Shown one piece after another: positions 53,557 through 64,000 of a DNA stretch of 64,000 bases. Source of the DNA: Dictyostelium discoideum (Eukaryota); NCBI GenBank assembly GCA_000004695.1, contig CM000150.2, forward strand, positions 2,976,001 through 3,040,000. Direction: 5' to 3'. The translations under genes were made by a program, and so were the position numbers. The notes beneath the pieces are model-generated. The model made no database searches. It had not been told where the DNA came from and saw nothing but the letters and a program-made list of their open reading frames with translations. Every line of letters starts with the position of its first letter. The stretch's first letter is position 1.

Positions 53557-56500
53557 ATGGTCCATAACAATGATGGTGATAATAATGACCAAGAAATGCA
53601 AGAGATTGGGATTAATGAAAAGAGAAGTCAATTCCCACACATAAGTGTTGAAGAATCTCGTCAAGAGTTTGACTCATTTTCAAATAATATCGAAGGAGAG
53701 TCAAAACAATTTGGAATGAATAGAGATGCTGAATCTAATATGGCAGTTGAAAGTGAAGAAGATTTTAAATTAAGAAAATATTTTGAAAATTCAAATAGAA
53801 TGCATCTTGAAAATGGTGGTAATGAAAAAAAAATGGGTGTTTCCATTAGAAATTTAACTGTTGTTGGTCTTGGTGCTGATGCATCTGTAATTGCTGATAT
53901 GTCAACTCCATTTTATGGTTTAGTTAAACTTTTTACTCCATCTTTTTGGTAAGTTTTAAATTCTTGATTTTTTTTTATTTATTTAAAAGTGTTTAGAAAA
54001 AAGAATAAAATATTGGGTGGCAATTTTTTTTTTTTATTATTTATTATTTTTTTTTTTTTTAAACAAAAGTAAGACCATCTTTTTTAAATTAACACAATTA
54101 TACTAATTATTTATTTATTTATTTATTTATTTAATTATTTTTTTTATTTTATTATTATTATTATTTATAGGACTAAAAAAACATCAACATTTGATATTTT
54201 ACATGATGTTACAACATTTTGTAAAGATGGTGAAATGGTTTTAGTTTTAGGTAGACCAGGTGCTGGTTGTTCAACATTGTTACGTGTTATTGCAAATCAA
54301 ACTGCATCATATGTTTCAGTTAAAGGTGATATTACATATGGTGGTATTCCTTCAAAAGAGTTTGAAAAATATAGAGGTGAACCTATTTATACACCAGAAG
54401 AAGATTCACATCATCCAACTTTAACAGTTCGTGAAACTTTAGATTTTGCATTAAAATGTAAAACTCCAGGTAATCGTTTACCAGATGAAACTAAAAGATC
54501 TTTCCGTGATAAAGTTTTTAATTTATTATTATCAATGTTTGGTATTGTTCATCAAGCTGATACTGTAAGTTTTCTTTTTTTTTTCTTTTTTTTTTTTATC
54601 TTTTACTAATAGGTTTTTTTTTTCCTAAATAAAATAGATTGTTGGTAATGAATTTATTAGAGGTTTATCAGGTGGTGAAAGAAAACGTTTAACAATTACA
54701 GAAGCAATGGTATCATCAGCATCAATTACATGTTGGGATTGTTCAACTCGTGGTCTCGATGCAGCATCAGCATTTGATTATGCAAAATCAATTCGTATTA
54801 TGTCTGATACATTACACAAAACAACAATTGCATCATTTTATCAAGCATCCGATTCAATTTATAATGTATTTGATAAAGTTTGTGTTTTAGAAAAAGGTCG
54901 TTGTATTTATTTTGGTCCAGTTGGTATGGCAAAACAATATTTTATGAGCTTGGGTTTCGATTGTGAACCAAGAAAATCAACACCAGATTTTTTAACTGGT
55001 GTAACAAATCCACAGGAACGTATTATTAAAAAAGGATTTGAAGGTCGTACTCCAGAAACTTCAGCAGATTTCGAAGAAGCATGGAAAAACTCTGATATAT
55101 ATAGAGATCAACTTCAAGAACAAAAAGAATATGAAGAATTAATTGAAAGAACTCAACCAAAAGTTGCATTTGTTCAAGAGGTTAGGGATGCAAATAGTAA
55201 AACCAATTTCAAAAAATCACAATATACAACAAGTTTTGTTACTCAAGTTATTGCATTAATTAAAAGAAATTTTGCATTGGTTTTAAATGATAAGTTTGGT
55301 ATGTACTCTAAATATCTCTCAGTTTTAATTCAAGGTTTCGTTTATGCTTCACTTTTCTATAATATGGATACAGATATTACTGGTTTATTTACTAGAGGTG
55401 GTGCAATTCTTTCAGCTGTAATTTTCAATGCTTTTCTCTCCATTGGTGAAATGGCAATGACTTTCTATGGTCGTCGTGTTTTACAAAAACATAAGAGTTA
55501 TGCTTTATATCGTCCATCTGCTTTACATATTGCACAAGTTGTAACTGATATTCCATTCACAGCAATTCAAGTATTCTTATTTTCAATTATTGCATACTTT
55601 ATGTTTGGTTTACAATATGATGCTGGTAAATTCTTTATTTTTTGTTTTACTTTGCTTGGTGCAAGTTTAGCATGTACAGCACTTTTCAGATGTTTTGGTT
55701 ACCTTTGTCCATCGATGTATATCGCTCAAAATATTTCAAATGTTTTCATCATTTTCATGCTTACCTATTCTGGTTATACCATTCCAATTCCAAAAATGCA
55801 TCCATGGTTCAGTTGGTTTAGACATATCAATATCTTTACCTATGCATTTAAAGCATTAATGGCAAATGAATTTGAAGGTTTGGATTTTAATTGTAAAGAA
55901 TCTGCAATTCCATATGGTCCAGCATATCAAGGTTCAGAGTTTGATGCATATAGAATTTGTCCATTAGGTGGTATTGAACAAGGTAGTCTCTACTTTAAAG
56001 GTGATTTTTATATGGATAAAACTTTATCATTTGCAACTGGAGAAATGTCACAAAATGTTATCATTGTTTATTGTTGGTGGGTTTTCTTTGTAGTTTGTAA
56101 TATGTTTGCAATGGAATACATTGATCATACAAGTGGCGGTTATACTCATAAAGTTTACAAAAAAGGTAAAGCTCCAAAAATGAATGATGTTGAAGAAGAA
56201 AAACAACAAAATGCCATTGTAGCAAAAGCAACAAGTAATATGAAAGATACTCTTCATATGGATGGTGGTATTTTCACATGGCAAAACATTAGATACACTG
56301 TCAAAGTTCCAGGTGGTGAAAGATTATTATTAGATAATATTGAAGGTTGGATTAAACCAGGTCAAATGACAGCTTTAATGGGTTCATCGGGTGCTGGTAA
56401 AACAACTTTACTCGATGTTTTAGCAAAGAGAAAAACTTTGGGTGTTGTTGAAGGTGATTCACATTTAAATGGTAGAGAATTAGAAATTGATTTTGAACGT

Positions 56501-58180
56501 ATTACTGGTTATGTAGAACAAATGGATGTCCACAATCCAGGTTTAACAGTTAGAGAAGCATTACGTTTCTCTGCAAAATTACGTCAAGAACCAGAGGTAT
56601 CATTAGAAGAGAAATTTAAATATGTTGAACATGTTTTAGAAATGATGGAAATGAAACATTTAGGTGATGCATTAATTGGTACATTAGAAACTGGTGTTGG
56701 TATTTCAGTTGAAGAAAGAAAAAGATTAACAATTGGTGTTGAATTGGTTGCAAAACCACAAATTCTTTTCCTTGATGAACCAACATCTGGTTTAGATGCT
56801 CAATCATCATATAATATCATTAAATTTATTCGTAAATTAGCAGATGCAGGTATGCCATTAGTTTGTACAATTCATCAACCATCATCAGTATTATTTGAAC
56901 ATTTTGATCGTATTCTTTTATTAGCTAAAGGTGGTAAAACAGTATATTTCGGTGATATTGGTGAAAAATCAAAAACTTTAACATCATACTTTGAACGTCA
57001 TGGTGTTCGTCCATGTACTGAGAGTGAAAATCCAGCAGAATATATTTTAGAAGCAACTGGTGCAGGTGTTCATGGTAAGTCTGATGTTAATTGGCCAGAA
57101 GCTTGGAAACAATCACCAGAGTTAGCCGATATTTCAAGGGAATTAGCAGCATTAAAAGAACAAGGTGCACAACAATATAAACCAAGAAGTGATGGACCAG
57201 CAAGAGAATTCTCACAATCAACATGGTATCAAACTAAAGAAGTTTATAAACGTTTAAATTTAATTTGGTGGAGAGATCCATACTATACATATGGTTCATT
57301 CGTTCAAGCTGCACTATGTGGTTTAATTATTGGTTTTACATTTTGGAATCTTCAAGGTTCAAGTAGTGATATGAATCAAAGAATTTTCTTTATTTTCGAA
57401 GCACTCATGTTAGGTATCTTATTGATTTTCGTTGTAATGCCACAATTAATTATCCAACGTGAATACTTTAAGAGAGATTTTGCCAGTAAATTCTATTCAT
57501 GGTTCCCATTTGCAATTTCAATTGTTGTTGTAGAATTACCGTTCATTGTTATTTCAGGTACAATCTTCTTCTTTTGTTCATTCTGGACTGCAGGATTACA
57601 TAAAACTAGTGACGATGAACAAACCTTTTATTTCTGGTTCATTTTCATTATCTTTATGTTTTTCTGTGTTTCTTTCGGTCAAGCAGTAGCAGCAGTTTGT
57701 ATCAATATGTTCTTTGCAATGACATTGATTCCATTGTTAATTGTTTTCCTATTTCTTTTCTGTGGAGTGATGGTCCCCCCATCATCAATTCCAACCTTTT
57801 GGAGAGGATGGGTGTATCATTTAAACCCATGTCGTTACTTTATGGAAGGTATTATCACAAATATTTTAAAAACTGTCCGTGTCGAGTGCTCTGAAGAAGA
57901 TATGGCCATTTTTACATTCCCAAAGAGTTATAATACTTGTCAAAACTATACTAGTGCTTTTCAATCATATAAACCATCCGGCTATGTTGAGAGTGCTACA
58001 TTAAATGGGGAACCAGCATGTGGTTATTGTATCTATAAAAATGGTGAAGAATATTACGAAACACTTGGTTGGTCAGCTGATAATCGTTGGAGAAATGTTG
58101 GTATTATCATTGGTTTCTTTGTTTTCAATATTTTAATGGTTATCCTATTTGTTTACTTAACTAGAAAAGGAAGTAGATAA
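53557..58180 (+). CDS. Full-size ABC transporter, G family, PDR type, copy 2 (tandem paralog of 26229..30724); join(53557..53948,54171..54564,54638..58180), 1442 aa
   Basis: Identical exon/intron architecture and exon lengths for exons 2 and 3 (394 and 3543 nt). All motifs are as in copy 1. Exon 3 is about 97% identical to copy 1; exon 1 is about 70% identical. Confidence 0.9.
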
Positions 58181-58893: not shown

Positions 58894-61800
58894 TTAACAT
58901 TCTATACAACATACACGACACATACTTGTGTAACAACCACACATACCACCCAAGATTAAAACGGTTGAATTTTCATTCTTCTTTTTATAAGCAAAAAATG
59001 GATTAAATTCGAAAATGAATAAACTTGCTCCAGTTTTAACACGAATCCAACGATAAAAGAATCTAAATTGAGAGTTTGAATTTCTAGCAGAAAAGTAAAC
59101 AATACCCAATAAAGCCCAAAATCTTTCCAATCCAGTGGATTCAATTGACCAATATCTAAAGATTGGCATAAAGTGAACTGTTTTATTTTGACCATCATTA
59201 TAGGCAAGGAACAAACTAATGGGTTTACGAATGTGATGAGTTTTTTCACTTTCTGGAATACCTTGATTAACATTTGAATTATGATAGAGTGATTTTTTGG
59301 TAGCACCAATCCATAGTAAACCGAATTGAACATACTCTTCAATCTTTGATAACCAAAGGAAAAGGAAAATATGGAAATGAGAGAATTGATTCTTTGACCA
59401 ATAAGAGATGAATGCAACCTTTGGATGAGCAATCCAAAACATTGATAAAACCAAACCATTCTCTATTGAATTTCTAAAGTAAAGTATTAAGAACACAAAT
59501 ATTTTACTATAATCTGGTGTGAATTTCGATAAGATAAAAGCTGCTTTTGGATGGAATAAATAAATAAAACTAACCAATTTCTTTTCATTTTCTCTCTTGA
59601 AAAAGTAAAGCAATAAAATATAGAAACGTTTGAAATCATTACTACTACTCCAATAATCAATGAAACCAAACTTCCTAACAATGAATAAAATTGATAAATG
59701 ATAATCGGTTGTATCTTTCTTTCTCCAGAATAATGGGAATAAACAAACAATACTCTTTCCATCATGGTGTCTATCATAACGGAAAAAGGCAATCTTTGGA
59801 TGAGCGATCCAAATAAAACTGAAAAGGTTGCGATATGCTGATTGAACTTCTTTAGTATCATTATTGGTAATTCTATAATACAATGGTACAAATCTATGTG
59901 TAATAACTTTACCAATACGATTATAATTAAATAATGATACAATTGGTGAAACAAACCAGAATAAACTGAAAATCTTGATACCATCACCCAATTTAGAATG
60001 TAGATAATAGAATAGTGGTAAGAAATACACAGAGAATTTATATGAACTCTTACGTAGATTAAAAAGTCCAAAGTTTGGTACTATATAAATGATACTTAAT
60101 GCCATTGAACTAACTGTAACACGAGTTGAACTACGTTTTCTAGAATGTGCACTAGAGGTGGAATTTTCATCAACAACAGGTTTTGAAGAATCTGGTATTG
60201 AACGATACCAAAATATTGGAAACATTCTAATGATTGAAGAAAATGGTGAAATTTCATAAAGGAAACAACTAACCAATGGATGGAAGAACCAAATGATTGC
60301 ACAAGTAGTTGCAGAAACATCAAATTTATAATATACTAGCATGAAAATGTACCATAGATTTTCAGTTGATTGTTTACTCTTATAAAAGAATGAAATGAAT
60401 GGTTTGAAAAACCAAAGTAATGCAAAATGATTATAATCTGAAATTCTTTCTGATTTCTTATGGAATACTGGCCAAAAATAAGTTTTCTTTGTATCTGAAA
60501 CTATATCTAATTTTTGAATGGTTGAAACATCTACTTCTCTATCGGTTGGACGACTTTCATTTAAAACCATTTGATCAATTGATTCTGCAATACTTTGGGT
60601 TTTAGAGATTGAACGTTTAATAACTTTTTTATGACAAAACAAAGTTAAATGAGTAGTAACAAACCAAATTATAGAGATTCTAGTTAAATCTTTCAAAGTT
60701 GATGTTATTTTATCATATGCCAATAACAAAGCAATACGAAGATGTTTACTATTTTCAACTTTATTATTCCAATATACCCAAAGTGGTACGAACCCAGTGA
60801 TTGAATACTTTTCACTATTATGTTTAAAGAAGAGTAGGATATTCATTGTGAAATTTTCACTAAAATCACGATAGGTATGACGATACAAGAACCAACAGAA
60901 CCATTTCAAATGATCTAAACCTTTAATTTGATGTGAATAGAATGGGAAGAGATAACGATTTTCAACATTACTAGCCTCTCTATGATAGTGAATATAATAA
61001 GGTGGTAAGAAAGCTGGTGAAGCAAAAGTAAACATATATTCTGCTGAATCTCTGAAATAATAGAATGGAAGTATCAATGTATTTCTTTGAGGTCTTGTAT
61101 CTTTGTCAGTAATGAATCTCCAAAATAATGGCATAATTAAAAGCATTTCATTGTAATCATTCTTTGATTTCCAAAAGAATGGCAACAATCTTATTGAATG
61201 ACTATTATCAGTACCATTTGATTCATAATGGAATAGAGGGAATAAGAAATCCACACTAAATAATTTACTCTCATCTTTACCCAATTTAATACGGAATATT
61301 GGGAAAAGGAAATAACGATTAACCTTTGAACCTCTATAAGATTTACCATAGAATGGGAAATAGTAGGTAAAGAGTTCATTCTTTGATGCATCTTGAGTTC
61401 TAAAAAAGAATGGGAACAATGTTTGGAATTTAAATATTGATTTACGATAATAAATATACATTGGTAGTACCAATATCATTAAATGAGTTTCACCTTTATG
61501 AACATCAATAAATATTGGAGCTATTAATCTGAATGAATTTGTTAAATTTCTATAATAATAATACAATGGTGATAAAATGATATCTCTATCTTCAGTATGT
61601 TTTTGATAGAAAATTGGTATAATTAATCTCTTTAAATAAGTTCCCATTTTTCTTTGATAATAAATTGGTGAAAGGAAATAACTATCAATATCAACTAATG
61701 ACCATTTCATTATAAATAAAGGAATTAGGAAGAATCTACTATCATTACCACTATTAATATAAAATGCTAATGGTAATAATGATCTAAATATAAAACTATA

Positions 61801-63320
61801 TTGTTCTAAAATTTCTTCATTGTTTGATTTCTTTTCTTCTTCTTCTTCTTCTTCTTCTTCTTCTTCTTCTTCTTTATTATTATTACTACCAATATCATTA
61901 TTAATAATATTATCTTCATTTCCACTACCTAATGTTTTCATTTCTTGAATTAAATCTGATTCTTTTTCTAAATGTATTTTATTTGATGATGATGATAATT
62001 CTAAATTATCTGATGGTTTTTCTAAATCTACGGTTGTTGTTGTTGGAGGTGGTAATGGAGATATTTCTAAATTATCTGAAGGTTTTTCTAAATTTATATT
62101 ATCATTGACTGGAATATTCCTTGGATAACTAATTTCAAAACCCTTCATTTTAATATTTTTCATTGAAGCTTGAATTTTTTTGAAATACCACATATATAAT
62201 AGGATATGACCTTTATTATAGTATAAAGAATTACTATAGGCAAAGAATGGGAAGAAACCATATCTAAGTCTACCAGATTCTTTATTTCTATAATAGTGAA
62301 TGAATCTATAAAAGAAATGGTTATAAACCCATTCACCATGATCATAGGTATTGAATTGAATGAGTGGATAAATGAAATAAATACTATGACCATGTTGTTT
62401 CCATGATCTTCTATAACCAATTAATGGCCAAACATGAACAAAGTAAGAACTACCTTTTTTCATTCTATACCAAAATATTGGCAAAACAATATGCCACCAT
62501 TTCGATTCATTTCCTTTGTATGTATATAATAAAGCTATATTTATAAATTTATTACTGTCACCCGATGATTTATAAAACAATGCCAACGGTATGAAATGTA
62601 ATTTGAAATAGTTTGAAATTTTTCTATAATAATAAAAGAAGCAAATCGATAGAAATACATTACTTGATCTTCTCATGTACAATACAATCGGTATGAAATT
62701 AAATGTGGTATTATTCGATGACCAACTACTCCAAAGGAATGGAAATATTACAAATCTTTTGAAACTACTTGATTTTGAGAAATAGAATAGTAGTGCCACA
62801 TTCACTCTTAGCCGTTTACCAATTCTATTATGATAGATAAAGAATGGTAAAATCATAAATGAGAATAAATCACCTTGATATGACATTATATTAATAAACA
62901 ATGCAATGTTTAATGTAAATCCACTACCTTGTTTGTATTTCAATAAACCAACTGGTATCAATAAATAAGTCCATCTGTCATTTTTCTTGGTTACCCATAA
63001 AATTGGAAATATGGTCCAAAATACATCACCACGATAATATCTATACCAAATGAATGGCGCCACTGTAAACCAAACATCTTCACCATCATCCTTTGAAAAT
63101 ATATTAATTATACCAGCTATTGATAATTTAAATTTACCTTTTCCAGATATAATCCATAATAATGGTCTAATACCAAATCTAAACTCTTCACTATTATATT
63201 CAATATGAATTATTGGCCAAAAGAAATCAATAAATTGACGATCATCTTTTTCTTTATATGTTAAACGAAATAAAATATAAAGTAACGCTAATAATTTTGT
63301 ACCTGCTTTTTCAGTCCTAT

Positions 63321-63357
<37 letters not shown>

Positions 63358-63544
63358 AAAATAATAATTAATAATTTAGAAAAAAAAAAAAAAAAACCTC
63401 AAAAGAGATTTCTATTAATCATACTTACCAAACAAAGAAAGGCCATAGAATATGTAATATTGTTGAAACTTCTCTATAGTTTTCTTTGGTTTTGTAATAA
63501 ACAAATGGCCATGCTGGAATATAATCACAATTCACTCTGACCAT
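58894..63544 (-). CDS. Very large aromatic-rich tandem-repeat protein, about 1512 aa; complement(join(58894..63316,63429..63544)). It has at least 60 copies of a roughly 17-aa unit (hydrophobic run-P-[LIF]-[FWY]-[FWY]-basic/polar), a central acidic insert (E13) and a Cys-rich C-terminus CGCYTSMCRVCCIEC
   Basis: The 4.2 kb track ORF extends upstream, in frame, to an aataatag acceptor at 63317. A 116-nt first exon, ATGGTCAGAGTG..TTTGTTTG|gtaagt (ATG 63544), joins in phase 2 (TG|G gives Trp). Repeats include RFFLIPLFIMKW, YFLSPIYYQRK, RLIIPIFYQKH, IILSPLYYYYRN, FLFPLFHYESNG, IRLLPFFWKSKND, WIAHPKIAFFRY and LFPLFWRKKD. I recognise no homolog. Confidence 0.65.
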
Positions 63545-63771
63545 TGTTTTTTTTTTTATTTTTAAAAATAAAAAATAAAATACACTATATATTTAAAAAA
63601 AAAAAAAAAAAAAAAAAGAAAACTAATAATAGGATTAATATAAATAAATAGTGATGATAAATAGGATAATAGGATAAATGTTTATATAAATTAAAAATTA
63701 AAAAAAAAAAAAAAAAAAAAAAGGATTAATTTAAATTTTGTATTTATGATTTTTTATTTAATAATAAAAAT

Positions 63772-63805
<34 letters not shown>

Positions 63806-64000
63806 CATATTTTAACATAAGAACAGATCAAAAAAAAAAAAAAAAAAAAAAAAAAGAAAAAAACAAATAAAAAGAATAACCCCCTATCTGGATTTTTTTT
63901 TTTTTTTTTTTTTAAATATTTTTATTTAGATCTTTATTTTTAAAAAGTGTGGTGTGGGGTTTCTTTGGATATTAAGAAAAAAAATAATAAATAAAAAAAA

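Follow-up and report, generated by a model that had tools for sequence, protein, structure and literature searches.

Several described proteins are built from beta-hairpin units or from long hairpin-built sheets. Choline-binding repeats and the CROP repeats of clostridial toxins are aromatic hairpins of ~20 amino acids that make a beta-solenoid, and the G-box of CPAP/SAS-4 binds proline-rich peptides along its sheet and stacks into fibrils. Very long sheets made of hairpins also occur in the beta-belt of ApoB100 and the YD shell of teneurin/Rhs proteins, where they wrap lipid or make a shell. In MORN proteins, the unit is a 23-amino acid repeat folded as a hairpin of two 6-residue strands (PMC7725318). 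Here we describe a gene on the minus strand of a 64,000-nucleotide stretch of Dictyostelium discoideum DNA (contig CM000150.2, positions 2,976,001 to 3,040,000; hereafter the window), whose 1,512-amino acid product consists largely of units of 17-18 amino acids. With high confidence, the locus is a real, spliced gene belonging to a large family of predicted hairpin-repeat proteins. Neither Pfam-A nor NCBIfam, the libraries searched, holds a curated model of this family, which also has no solved structure, name or function.

The likeness to MORN proteins (PF02493; TbMORN1, junctophilin and MORN2/3/4) lies in predicted beta-hairpin units arranged as an elongated antiparallel sheet, and it is drawn from the model of a bacterial homologue only. 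The D. discoideum protein has no PF02493 match at E<=10, its unit is 17-18 rather than 23 amino acids long, and the GxG and YEGEW / Y-x-G-x-W signatures are absent, the defining turn being hydrophobic-Pro-hydrophobic. Its array is also 5-10 times longer, with ~70 hairpins and shorter loops, and is strongly basic, whereas the TbMORN1 dimer has a negative overall charge (PMC7725318). The TCP10 domain (G-box) of CPAP/SAS-4 and OspA resemble the modelled bacterial member in their single-layer beta-sheet, with a local fold match over ~115-130 of 1,080 residues, but they are ~20-strand domains with stabilising polar or charged faces and have no sequence relationship to the repeat protein. The strands of ApoB100 and teneurin are longer and amphipathic by face. 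The VPS13, BLTP and AsmA proteins are likewise giant and mostly all-beta with hydrophobic surfaces, and their bacterial versions are N-terminally anchored. The sole curated model with a recurring signal is that of Leptospira LA_1737 (NCBIfam NF047486, LA_1737_Cterm), which three bacterial relatives match at 23-31 bits, against a cut-off of 60 bits. The Dictyostelium protein has no match to it, the LA_1737 family is itself uncharacterised, and nothing on LA_1737 was found in a literature search.

Gene model and repeat layout

The joined minus-strand segments 63544..63429 and 63316..58894 form an intact coding sequence of two exons and 4,539 nucleotides that encodes 1,512 amino acids with no internal stop, in a window with a Dictyostelium-like GC content of 14-34%. 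The features of the gene, in window coordinates, are as follows.

63429-63544, minus strand: exon 1, 116 nt, from Met1 to the first two bases of Trp39, ending TG|GTAAGT and encoding the units IPAWPFVYY and ILWPFFVW
63317-63428, minus strand: sole intron, 112 nt, GT..AG, phase 2, ending ..AATAG, poly-T rich on the coding strand
58894-63316, minus strand: exon 2, residues 39-1512 and the stop codon TAA at 58894-58896
62158-63315, minus strand: exon 2 part of the N-terminal (predicted) hairpin array, residues 40-425; the array begins at residue 1 in exon 1
61801-62157, minus strand: acidic low-complexity linker, residues 426-544, net charge -21, with LEKPSDNLE repeats
58951-61800, minus strand: C-terminal (predicted) hairpin array, residues 545-1494, net charge +52, including the W..HP unit variant
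60883-61392, minus strand: non-periodic conserved core block, residues 681-850, 170 amino acids
~60481-60651, minus strand: polar spacer 1, residues ~928-984, poorly conserved
~60118-60189, minus strand: polar spacer 2, residues ~1082-1105, poorly conserved
58897-58950, minus strand: C-terminal Cys cluster GGMCGCYTSMCRVCCIEC, 6 Cys in 18 residues

Excision of the intron restores the frame and yields the junction FFVW|TEKAG, which is also present in orthologues; the junction sequence is identical in seven other dictyostelids. KAM9960731.1 and KAM9961787.1, both annotated proteins of D. discoideum, align with the product at 97% identity from residue 1 to 1512. The splice is therefore supported both by these end-to-end alignments and by the junction shared with orthologues, and the giant product of a two-exon gene put forward in the original prediction stands. 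The phase-2 intron in a poly(A) stretch holds as well, the T-rich coding strand being an A-run on the plus strand. By contrast, the N-terminal exon cannot be called unique, as had been claimed, because exon 1 comprises the first two repeat units, including an IPAWP motif that is kept in bacterial homologues. No paralogue of the repeat gene lies within the 64-kb window.

An artefact, whether a fortuitous open reading frame (ORF), a pseudogene or the low-complexity composition of an AT-rich genome, was considered since the genome is extremely AT-rich and the exact 1,512-amino acid sequence has no match in the protein collection searched. It is a negligible prospect: the frame stays open for 4.4 kb at ~25% GC, orthologues as low as 38% in identity are still full-length, the splice junction is conserved and homologues number in the hundreds.

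The repeat is evident by several measures. The hydrophobic autocorrelation has its maximum at lags of 17-19 residues (0.15, whereas 200 shuffled sequences do not exceed 0.10), the dominant Fourier component is 17.8 amino acids, and the BLOSUM lag score is highest at lag 17. An iterated hidden Markov model (HMM) of the Pro-centred unit (consensus FFPLFWYRKSSS) finds 41 units in the protein compared to 1-6 in shuffled sequence, while an HMM of the bacterial unit finds 19 compared to 0-4. A second unit variant, W..HP (e.g. FIWIAHPKIAFF), occupies much of residues 1000-1400, and taken together with the 41 units it makes the earlier figure of about 60 tandem units of roughly 17 amino acids a fair estimate, the period of 17-18 amino acids being well over the shuffled controls. 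More than half of the prolines (35/65) sit in a hydrophobic-Pro-hydrophobic context, spaced 17-21 amino acids apart or multiples thereof. Around the unit Pro, hydrophobic residues occupy positions -5 to +4, Lys and Arg are enriched at +4 to +7, and polar residues follow at +8 to +11. The aromatic density had been overestimated at above 25%: Phe, Trp and Tyr make up 20.6% of the protein (23.6% with His included, and 24.9% in the N-terminal array), and Gly accounts for 3.4%. A reading of the hydrophobic runs as transmembrane helices was rejected, as no 19-residue window has a Kyte-Doolittle hydropathy above 1.6 and thus no segment is of transmembrane-helix grade.

The two arrays are both basic, the N-terminal one (residues 1-425) carrying a net charge of +31, and they are separated by the acidic linker. 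Rather than being interrupted once, as had been thought, the array has three polar interruptions, consisting of this main insert and the two short spacers. The linker contains an imperfect 27-nt repeat encoding LEKPSDNLE and a run of 13 Glu (residues 521-533, 61834-61872) from a GAA/TTC trinucleotide run; the repetitive stretch extends over window positions 61829-62030, and linker length and sequence vary between orthologues. Both arrays are free of DNA-level tandem repeats. Since repetition at the DNA level is confined to the insert, the array is old and diverged and not a collapsed assembly repeat, a possibility that the original prediction had raised against itself. The annotated protein is 1,495, 1,498 or 1,512 amino acids long depending on the D. 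discoideum strain. Length polymorphism of the acidic insert probably accounts for most of this variation, and much of the sequence difference from other strains probably falls there too.

Two further landmarks stand apart from the periodic units. The core block reads TYYFPFYGKSYRGS..YFLFPIF..VDFLFPLFHYE..IRLLPFFWKS..LPPYYIHYHRE..FPFY. The Cys-containing tail noticed earlier is conserved in all dictyostelids and, judging by its residues, is a candidate S-acylation or metal-binding tail; its terminal CIEC is not a canonical CaaX box.

Relatives in bacteria and amoebae

A word-indexed search recovered full-length orthologues in D. citrinum (91% identity), D. firmibasis (83%), D. purpureum (59%), Polysphondylium violaceum (45%), Acytostelium (45%) and Heterostelium album (38%), along with two distant bacterial-looking proteins. 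Over this range of identities the Pro and aromatic columns are invariant, a pattern which indicates that the repeat protein is under purifying conservation across Dictyostelia. One dictyostelid orthologue, P0005 (eukprot gene3812-4742_t), has an N-terminal extension of ~210-300 amino acids unrelated to the hairpin-repeat family, while some of the N-terminal array is missing from it. Fusion of two gene models is the probable cause, and its PF27811 tag was not reproduced with the local library. The same holds for all precomputed Pfam tags found on three homologues (PF27811, PF28462 and PF22282).

Much of the family lies beyond the dictyostelids. A profile search with the alignment of the C-terminal array matched 667 cluster representatives (defined at 50% identity) at E<=1e-3, 328 at <=1e-10 and 88 at <=1e-30, with E-values to bacterial members as low as 1e-80. 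The majority of the matches are bacterial, and the eukaryotic ones include Tieghemostelium, Cavenderia, Physarum polycephalum, Pelomyxa schiedti and the heterolobosean Pharyngomonas kirbyi. Searches seeded with two bacterial members, P0008 and P0136, gave 314 and 440 matches, respectively. The named bacterial sources are Bacteroidia, Tenuifilaceae, Williamwhitmania, Nitrospirota, Elusimicrobiota, Desulfuromonadales, Deltaproteobacteria, Planctomycetota and Methylomirabilota. In all, members come from seven or more bacterial phyla and from several amoeboid eukaryotes, with protein lengths of 700-1,800 amino acids; examples are Williamwhitmania taraxaci P0077, Nitrospirota MDH5527004.1 and Physarum Phypoly_transcript_00740. 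A scan of GTDB genomes for the closest bacterial subfamily, using core-block motifs as patterns, returned 12 loci, seven of them in Nitrospirota metagenome-assembled genomes, and the named members of this subfamily are likewise mainly from Nitrospirota.

Curated resources add little. Pfam and NCBIfam scans of the D. discoideum protein at E<=10 gave no meaningful match and one spurious one (DUF4746), and sequence-profile searches of the PDB gave none. When 15 homologues were scanned alongside it, spurious short matches (CydS, Lipoprotein_15, DUF4746 and allose-binding protein) and the sub-threshold LA_1737_Cterm were all that appeared. The TPR, LRR, WD40, ankyrin and Kelch repeats, with units of 34, 24, 40, 33 and 50 amino acids, had no HMM match at E<=10. 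The earlier judgement that the period does not fit these repeats or MORN was thus sound, whereas the statement that the protein has no recognisable family is true of curated families only, since hundreds of homologues exist and most are bacterial. The amoebozoan searches that had been suggested found orthologues across Dictyostelia and homologues in Physarum and Pelomyxa.

The relationship between the dictyostelid and bacterial proteins extends to features outside the repeat. With hhalign, the dictyostelid alignment of the C-terminal array and the Bacteroidota alignment match with a probability of 98.7% (E 2e-16) over 339 columns, and BLAST segments keep their order along the chain, each terminus pairing with its counterpart. 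Bacterial P0134, P0136 and P0137 and Physarum P0135 are, in their N-terminal parts, collinear with the N-terminal array. Directly behind the signal peptide, the mature bacterial protein begins ..IPAWP(L/I/F)(V/I)Y(H/Y)..; the Dictyostelium protein starts MVRVNCDYIPAWPFVYY, and its orthologues begin in the same way. The core block aligns nearly full-length with P0281, P0260, P0261, P0259 and P0275 of the mainly nitrospirotal bacterial subfamily (80-90 bits) and with Physarum, and its landmark motif is TYYFPxYG...WDxLWPLFHYE. A C-terminal landmark, FR..R..NPF..LGG, takes the form FRFFYRWIRVK..FEFNPFFAY..LILGG in Dictyostelium and FRFLWRFIR..FEFNPLYY..AILGG in bacteria. Because the match is collinear and the N-terminal, core and C-terminal landmarks are non-periodic, it reflects homology rather than convergence of simple repeats. 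The D. discoideum protein thus shows both the base period of ~17 amino acids and the collinear non-repeat landmarks of the unnamed family.

Members differ in how their units are grouped. Lag 17 ranks first in D. discoideum, P. violaceum, Physarum, P0136 and P0134, and third in the Bacteroidota proteins P0077 and P0008, behind super-repeat lags of 91 and 182 amino acids. In the latter two, five hairpins make a super-repeat of 91 amino acids (BLOSUM lag score up to 1.95), and Physarum P0135 has one of 85 amino acids. The D. discoideum protein has the base period alone, without the five-hairpin super-repeat, which could correspond to a single structural turn or module within the ribbon.

The ends of the proteins separate bacterial from eukaryotic versions. 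A signal-like N-terminus is found in 240 of 294 bacterial members and lipoboxes in a few; all eukaryotic members lack a signal peptide and have a Cys-rich C-terminal tail, such as ..CRVTCCTC in Physarum, ..CRLCCCCFV in Pharyngomonas, ..LCCFTTDCDKC.. in Pelomyxa and GGMCGCYTSMCRVCCIEC in Dictyostelia. A signal peptide is the rule among the bacterial members, which makes them probable envelope proteins. Those with the core block mostly (23/30) end in Phe within ..(L/F)W(I/V)F (..LWIF or ..FWVF; C-termini of P0134-P0140, P0257 and P0258 were looked at), a motif reminiscent, as a sequence, of the beta-signal of outer-membrane proteins. The Bacteroidota members have a different C-terminus, ..SNY..LK.KG....

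A bacterial origin of the eukaryotic members is somewhat more likely than not, because the family counts hundreds of members across many bacterial phyla compared to a patchy amoeboid distribution, and because the eukaryotic start coincides with the mature bacterial N-terminus. That exact coincidence also argues that the signal peptide was lost in eukaryotes, where the ..LWIF end would in turn have been replaced by the Cys cluster. The eukaryotic branch therefore looks like a clean re-targeting of a bacterial envelope protein, with the signal peptide trimmed at the mature start and a Phe motif exchanged for a Cys cluster. BLASTP best matches bring Dictyostelia, Physarum and two Logan-assembled proteins, P0138 and P0141, close to one another. 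A literature search for a horizontally transferred repeat protein of Dictyostelium found nothing relevant.

In one bacterial sub-clade, a GNAT/FeeM-aminotransferase fusion of ~550-590 amino acids is encoded directly after the homologue gene at three distinct loci. The sub-clade loci are as follows.

L002, 8041-11010: homologue with lipid-type neighbours
L003: homologue of the sub-clade
L006, 10001-12784: homologue with lipid-type neighbours
L007, 5998-8667: homologue with lipid-type neighbours

A gene with CxxCxxCC and LPG_synthase_C precedes the homologue in L006 and L007. L002 encodes CDP-OH_P_transf (CDP-alcohol phosphatidyltransferase), CTP_transf_1 (CDP-diglyceride synthase), three PlsC-type acyltransferases, an Aas-like MFS-acyltransferase-AMP-ligase and DUF6962, the last of which is also found in L007. 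This neighbourhood may be an aminolipid or phospholipid gene island, and it offers a weak hint of a lipid connection.

Predicted fold and proposed function

The clearest structural view of the family comes from an AlphaFold2 model of Williamwhitmania P0077 built with 44 homologues (mean predicted local distance difference test score, pLDDT, 67.8, with 591 residues at 70-90; predicted template modelling score, pTM, 0.34). It opens with an N-terminal helix, a signal or anchor, behind which come 107 strands, each of 5-6 residues and separated by 3-residue turns, and the strands form a continuous antiparallel meander. When the P0077 sequence is compared with DSSP assignments, Pro never lies inside a strand and stands two residues ahead of a strand start 53 times. 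Since Pro lies outside the strands and just ahead of them, the hydrophobic-Pro-hydrophobic motif is read as a tight hairpin turn. It is likely, on the strength of this model, that one unit of 17-18 amino acids corresponds to one beta-hairpin, which to our knowledge would be among the shortest hairpin repeats. Each unit would run from a strand through the tight Pro turn into an F/W/Y strand ending in Lys or Arg, and from there into a polar G/S/N/D turn, so that successive hairpins form a long antiparallel meander ribbon with the greasy Pro turns all on one edge and the polar turns all on the other. The earlier expectation of an all-beta tandem-repeat array is borne out by the models; that of a beta-solenoid is not, as the P0077 model is a meander sheet whose global fold is uncertain.

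Such an edge-to-edge polarity would be unusual among single-layer beta-sheets and, if real, the greasy edge must be buried in a membrane, by self-association or within a closed superstructure. Of the functions considered, the extended membrane-associated array named in the original prediction is the most plausible, and it is held only tentatively for Dictyostelium. The two basic arrays (+31 and +52), joined by a flexible acidic linker, could make up an extended scaffold that lies against a membrane on its cytosolic side, anchored by an S-acylated Cys tail, with the aromatic and basic hairpin tips dipping into the lipid interface. Its architecture would be akin to a very long hairpin array of the MORN or junctophilin type. 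Taken as one statement, the combination of gene, family, hairpin ribbon, bacterial origin and membrane scaffold falls a little short of an even chance.

Several points weigh against this statement. AlphaFold2 applied to the Dictyostelium C-terminal array, with 8 orthologues, gave a pLDDT of 29.7, and for that reason the predicted hairpin fold has been transferred from a bacterial homologue that is ~20% identical. The global path of the modelled ribbon, whether flat, superhelical, a ring or a shell, is uncertain at a pTM of 0.34, and the fold matches cover ~100-180 of 1,080 residues with template modelling (TM) scores of 0.03-0.09. The proposed S-acylation is suggested by the composition of the tail, for which metal binding is an alternative. 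Named members are all annotated as hypothetical proteins. No operon partner is conserved across the family, and the bacterial loci outside the sub-clade have no lipid neighbours. MORN repeats did not bind liposomes in vitro (PMC7725318). As for origin, Pharyngomonas kirbyi P0179 and Pelomyxa schiedti P0238 have their best matches among bacteria instead of other eukaryotes, which suggests either several independent transfers or fast divergence. A single transfer is not established given these scores, and vertical descent with loss is possible.

The other functional explanations all have to account for the same sheet. A scaffold that binds proteins or assembles with itself without any membrane role, in the manner of the CPAP/SAS-4 G-box or of axonemal MORN proteins, is unlikely although still worth considering; it would leave unexplained the conserved Cys cluster, the bacterial signal peptides and the strongly hydrophobic turn edge, and the repeat protein has no sequence similarity to TCP10_C or MORN models. 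A more radical membrane version, which we regard as doubtful, is a monotopic fold in which a ribbon of at least 100 strands inserts its whole Pro/aromatic turn edge in one leaflet like a picket fence, possibly as a belt or ring, the amoebae having captured a bacterial envelope protein and directed it to the cytosolic leaflet through loss of the signal peptide and gain of a palmitoylated Cys tail. A transmembrane beta-barrel is an improbable fold, as the strands are 5-6 residues long with both faces hydrophobic near the tip. For a carbohydrate- or cell-wall-binding hairpin superhelix like the choline-binding or CROP repeats, the unit length (17-21 amino acids) and aromatic richness are alike; the bacterial members, having signal-like N-termini, are taken as exported, and phage tail-fibre models appear among the Foldseek matches. 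The GW..G.WYYF-type motif of ~20 amino acids that marks the choline-binding/cell-wall-binding repeats (PF01473) and CROPs was not found in the protein, and this explanation is considered quite improbable.

Foldseek comparisons bear on the remaining two. Against the PDB, the P0077 model gave local matches only (TM <0.1), to the ApoB100 belt, megalin, teneurin and OspA, with the lowest E-values for ApoB100 (6e-10) and teneurin (2e-7); against BFVD, it matched phage tail fibres and giant-virus MORN proteins. The suggested comparison of a model revealed a local resemblance to hairpin sheets (CPAP G-box, OspA, MORN and ApoB) at TM-scores that do not reach a shared global fold. A hollow shell or giant ring enclosing cargo, like the Rhs/teneurin YD cocoon or the ApoB100 belt around a lipid particle, draws on these matches, but with TM-scores of 0.03-0.09 the similarity is local. 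In addition, YD/Rhs motifs are absent, the Rhs/YD repeat (PF05593) has no Pfam match in the D. discoideum protein or the scanned homologues, there is no attached toxin-like or cargo domain, and a pTM of 0.34 lends closure no support; such a shell is very unlikely. The bulk lipid-transfer groove of the VPS13/BLTP/AsmA type, which the original prediction had offered, is equally hard to sustain. The protein has neither the Chorein_N, VPS13, AsmA and TamB signatures in Pfam nor the five-strand repeating beta-groove units and face-segregated groove of that class. A hairpin of 17 amino acids with strands of 5-6 residues would be too narrow for a taco-like groove, its hydrophobicity is not segregated by face, and the listed fold matches are single-layer sheets with no BLTP, VPS13 or AsmA structure among them.

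On present evidence the Dictyostelium gene product represents a new, large and unnamed repeat family and not a new principle of protein architecture. In its mode of working it is placed with hairpin arrays such as MORN, the G-box and single-layer sheets of the OspA type, from which it is set apart by unit length, signature, scale and the predicted polarity from edge to edge of the ribbon. Nothing yet points to specific new biology, and interest is moderate; the size of the family, its bacterial-amoebal distribution and its hydrophobic edge merit attention. Since Dictyostelium is genetically tractable, it provides a route to a first function for the whole family.

Neighbouring sequence

The 5' side of the repeat gene, window positions 63545-64000, contains no further ORF up to the window end and consists almost entirely of poly-A and poly-T tracts of 20-30 nt each. 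Long homopolymer tracts of this kind are the usual intergenic DNA of Dictyostelium. On the other side, positions 54707-58180 of the plus strand hold an ORF of 1,157 amino acids that encodes an ABC transporter of the ABCG type (PDR-like); two transmembrane blocks are present, as are the Walker and signature motifs. As the listed ORF opens in the middle of a domain, one or more earlier exons probably lie upstream of 54707. The ABCG ORF and the repeat gene are convergent, and their stop codons are 713 bp apart across an AT-rich spacer.

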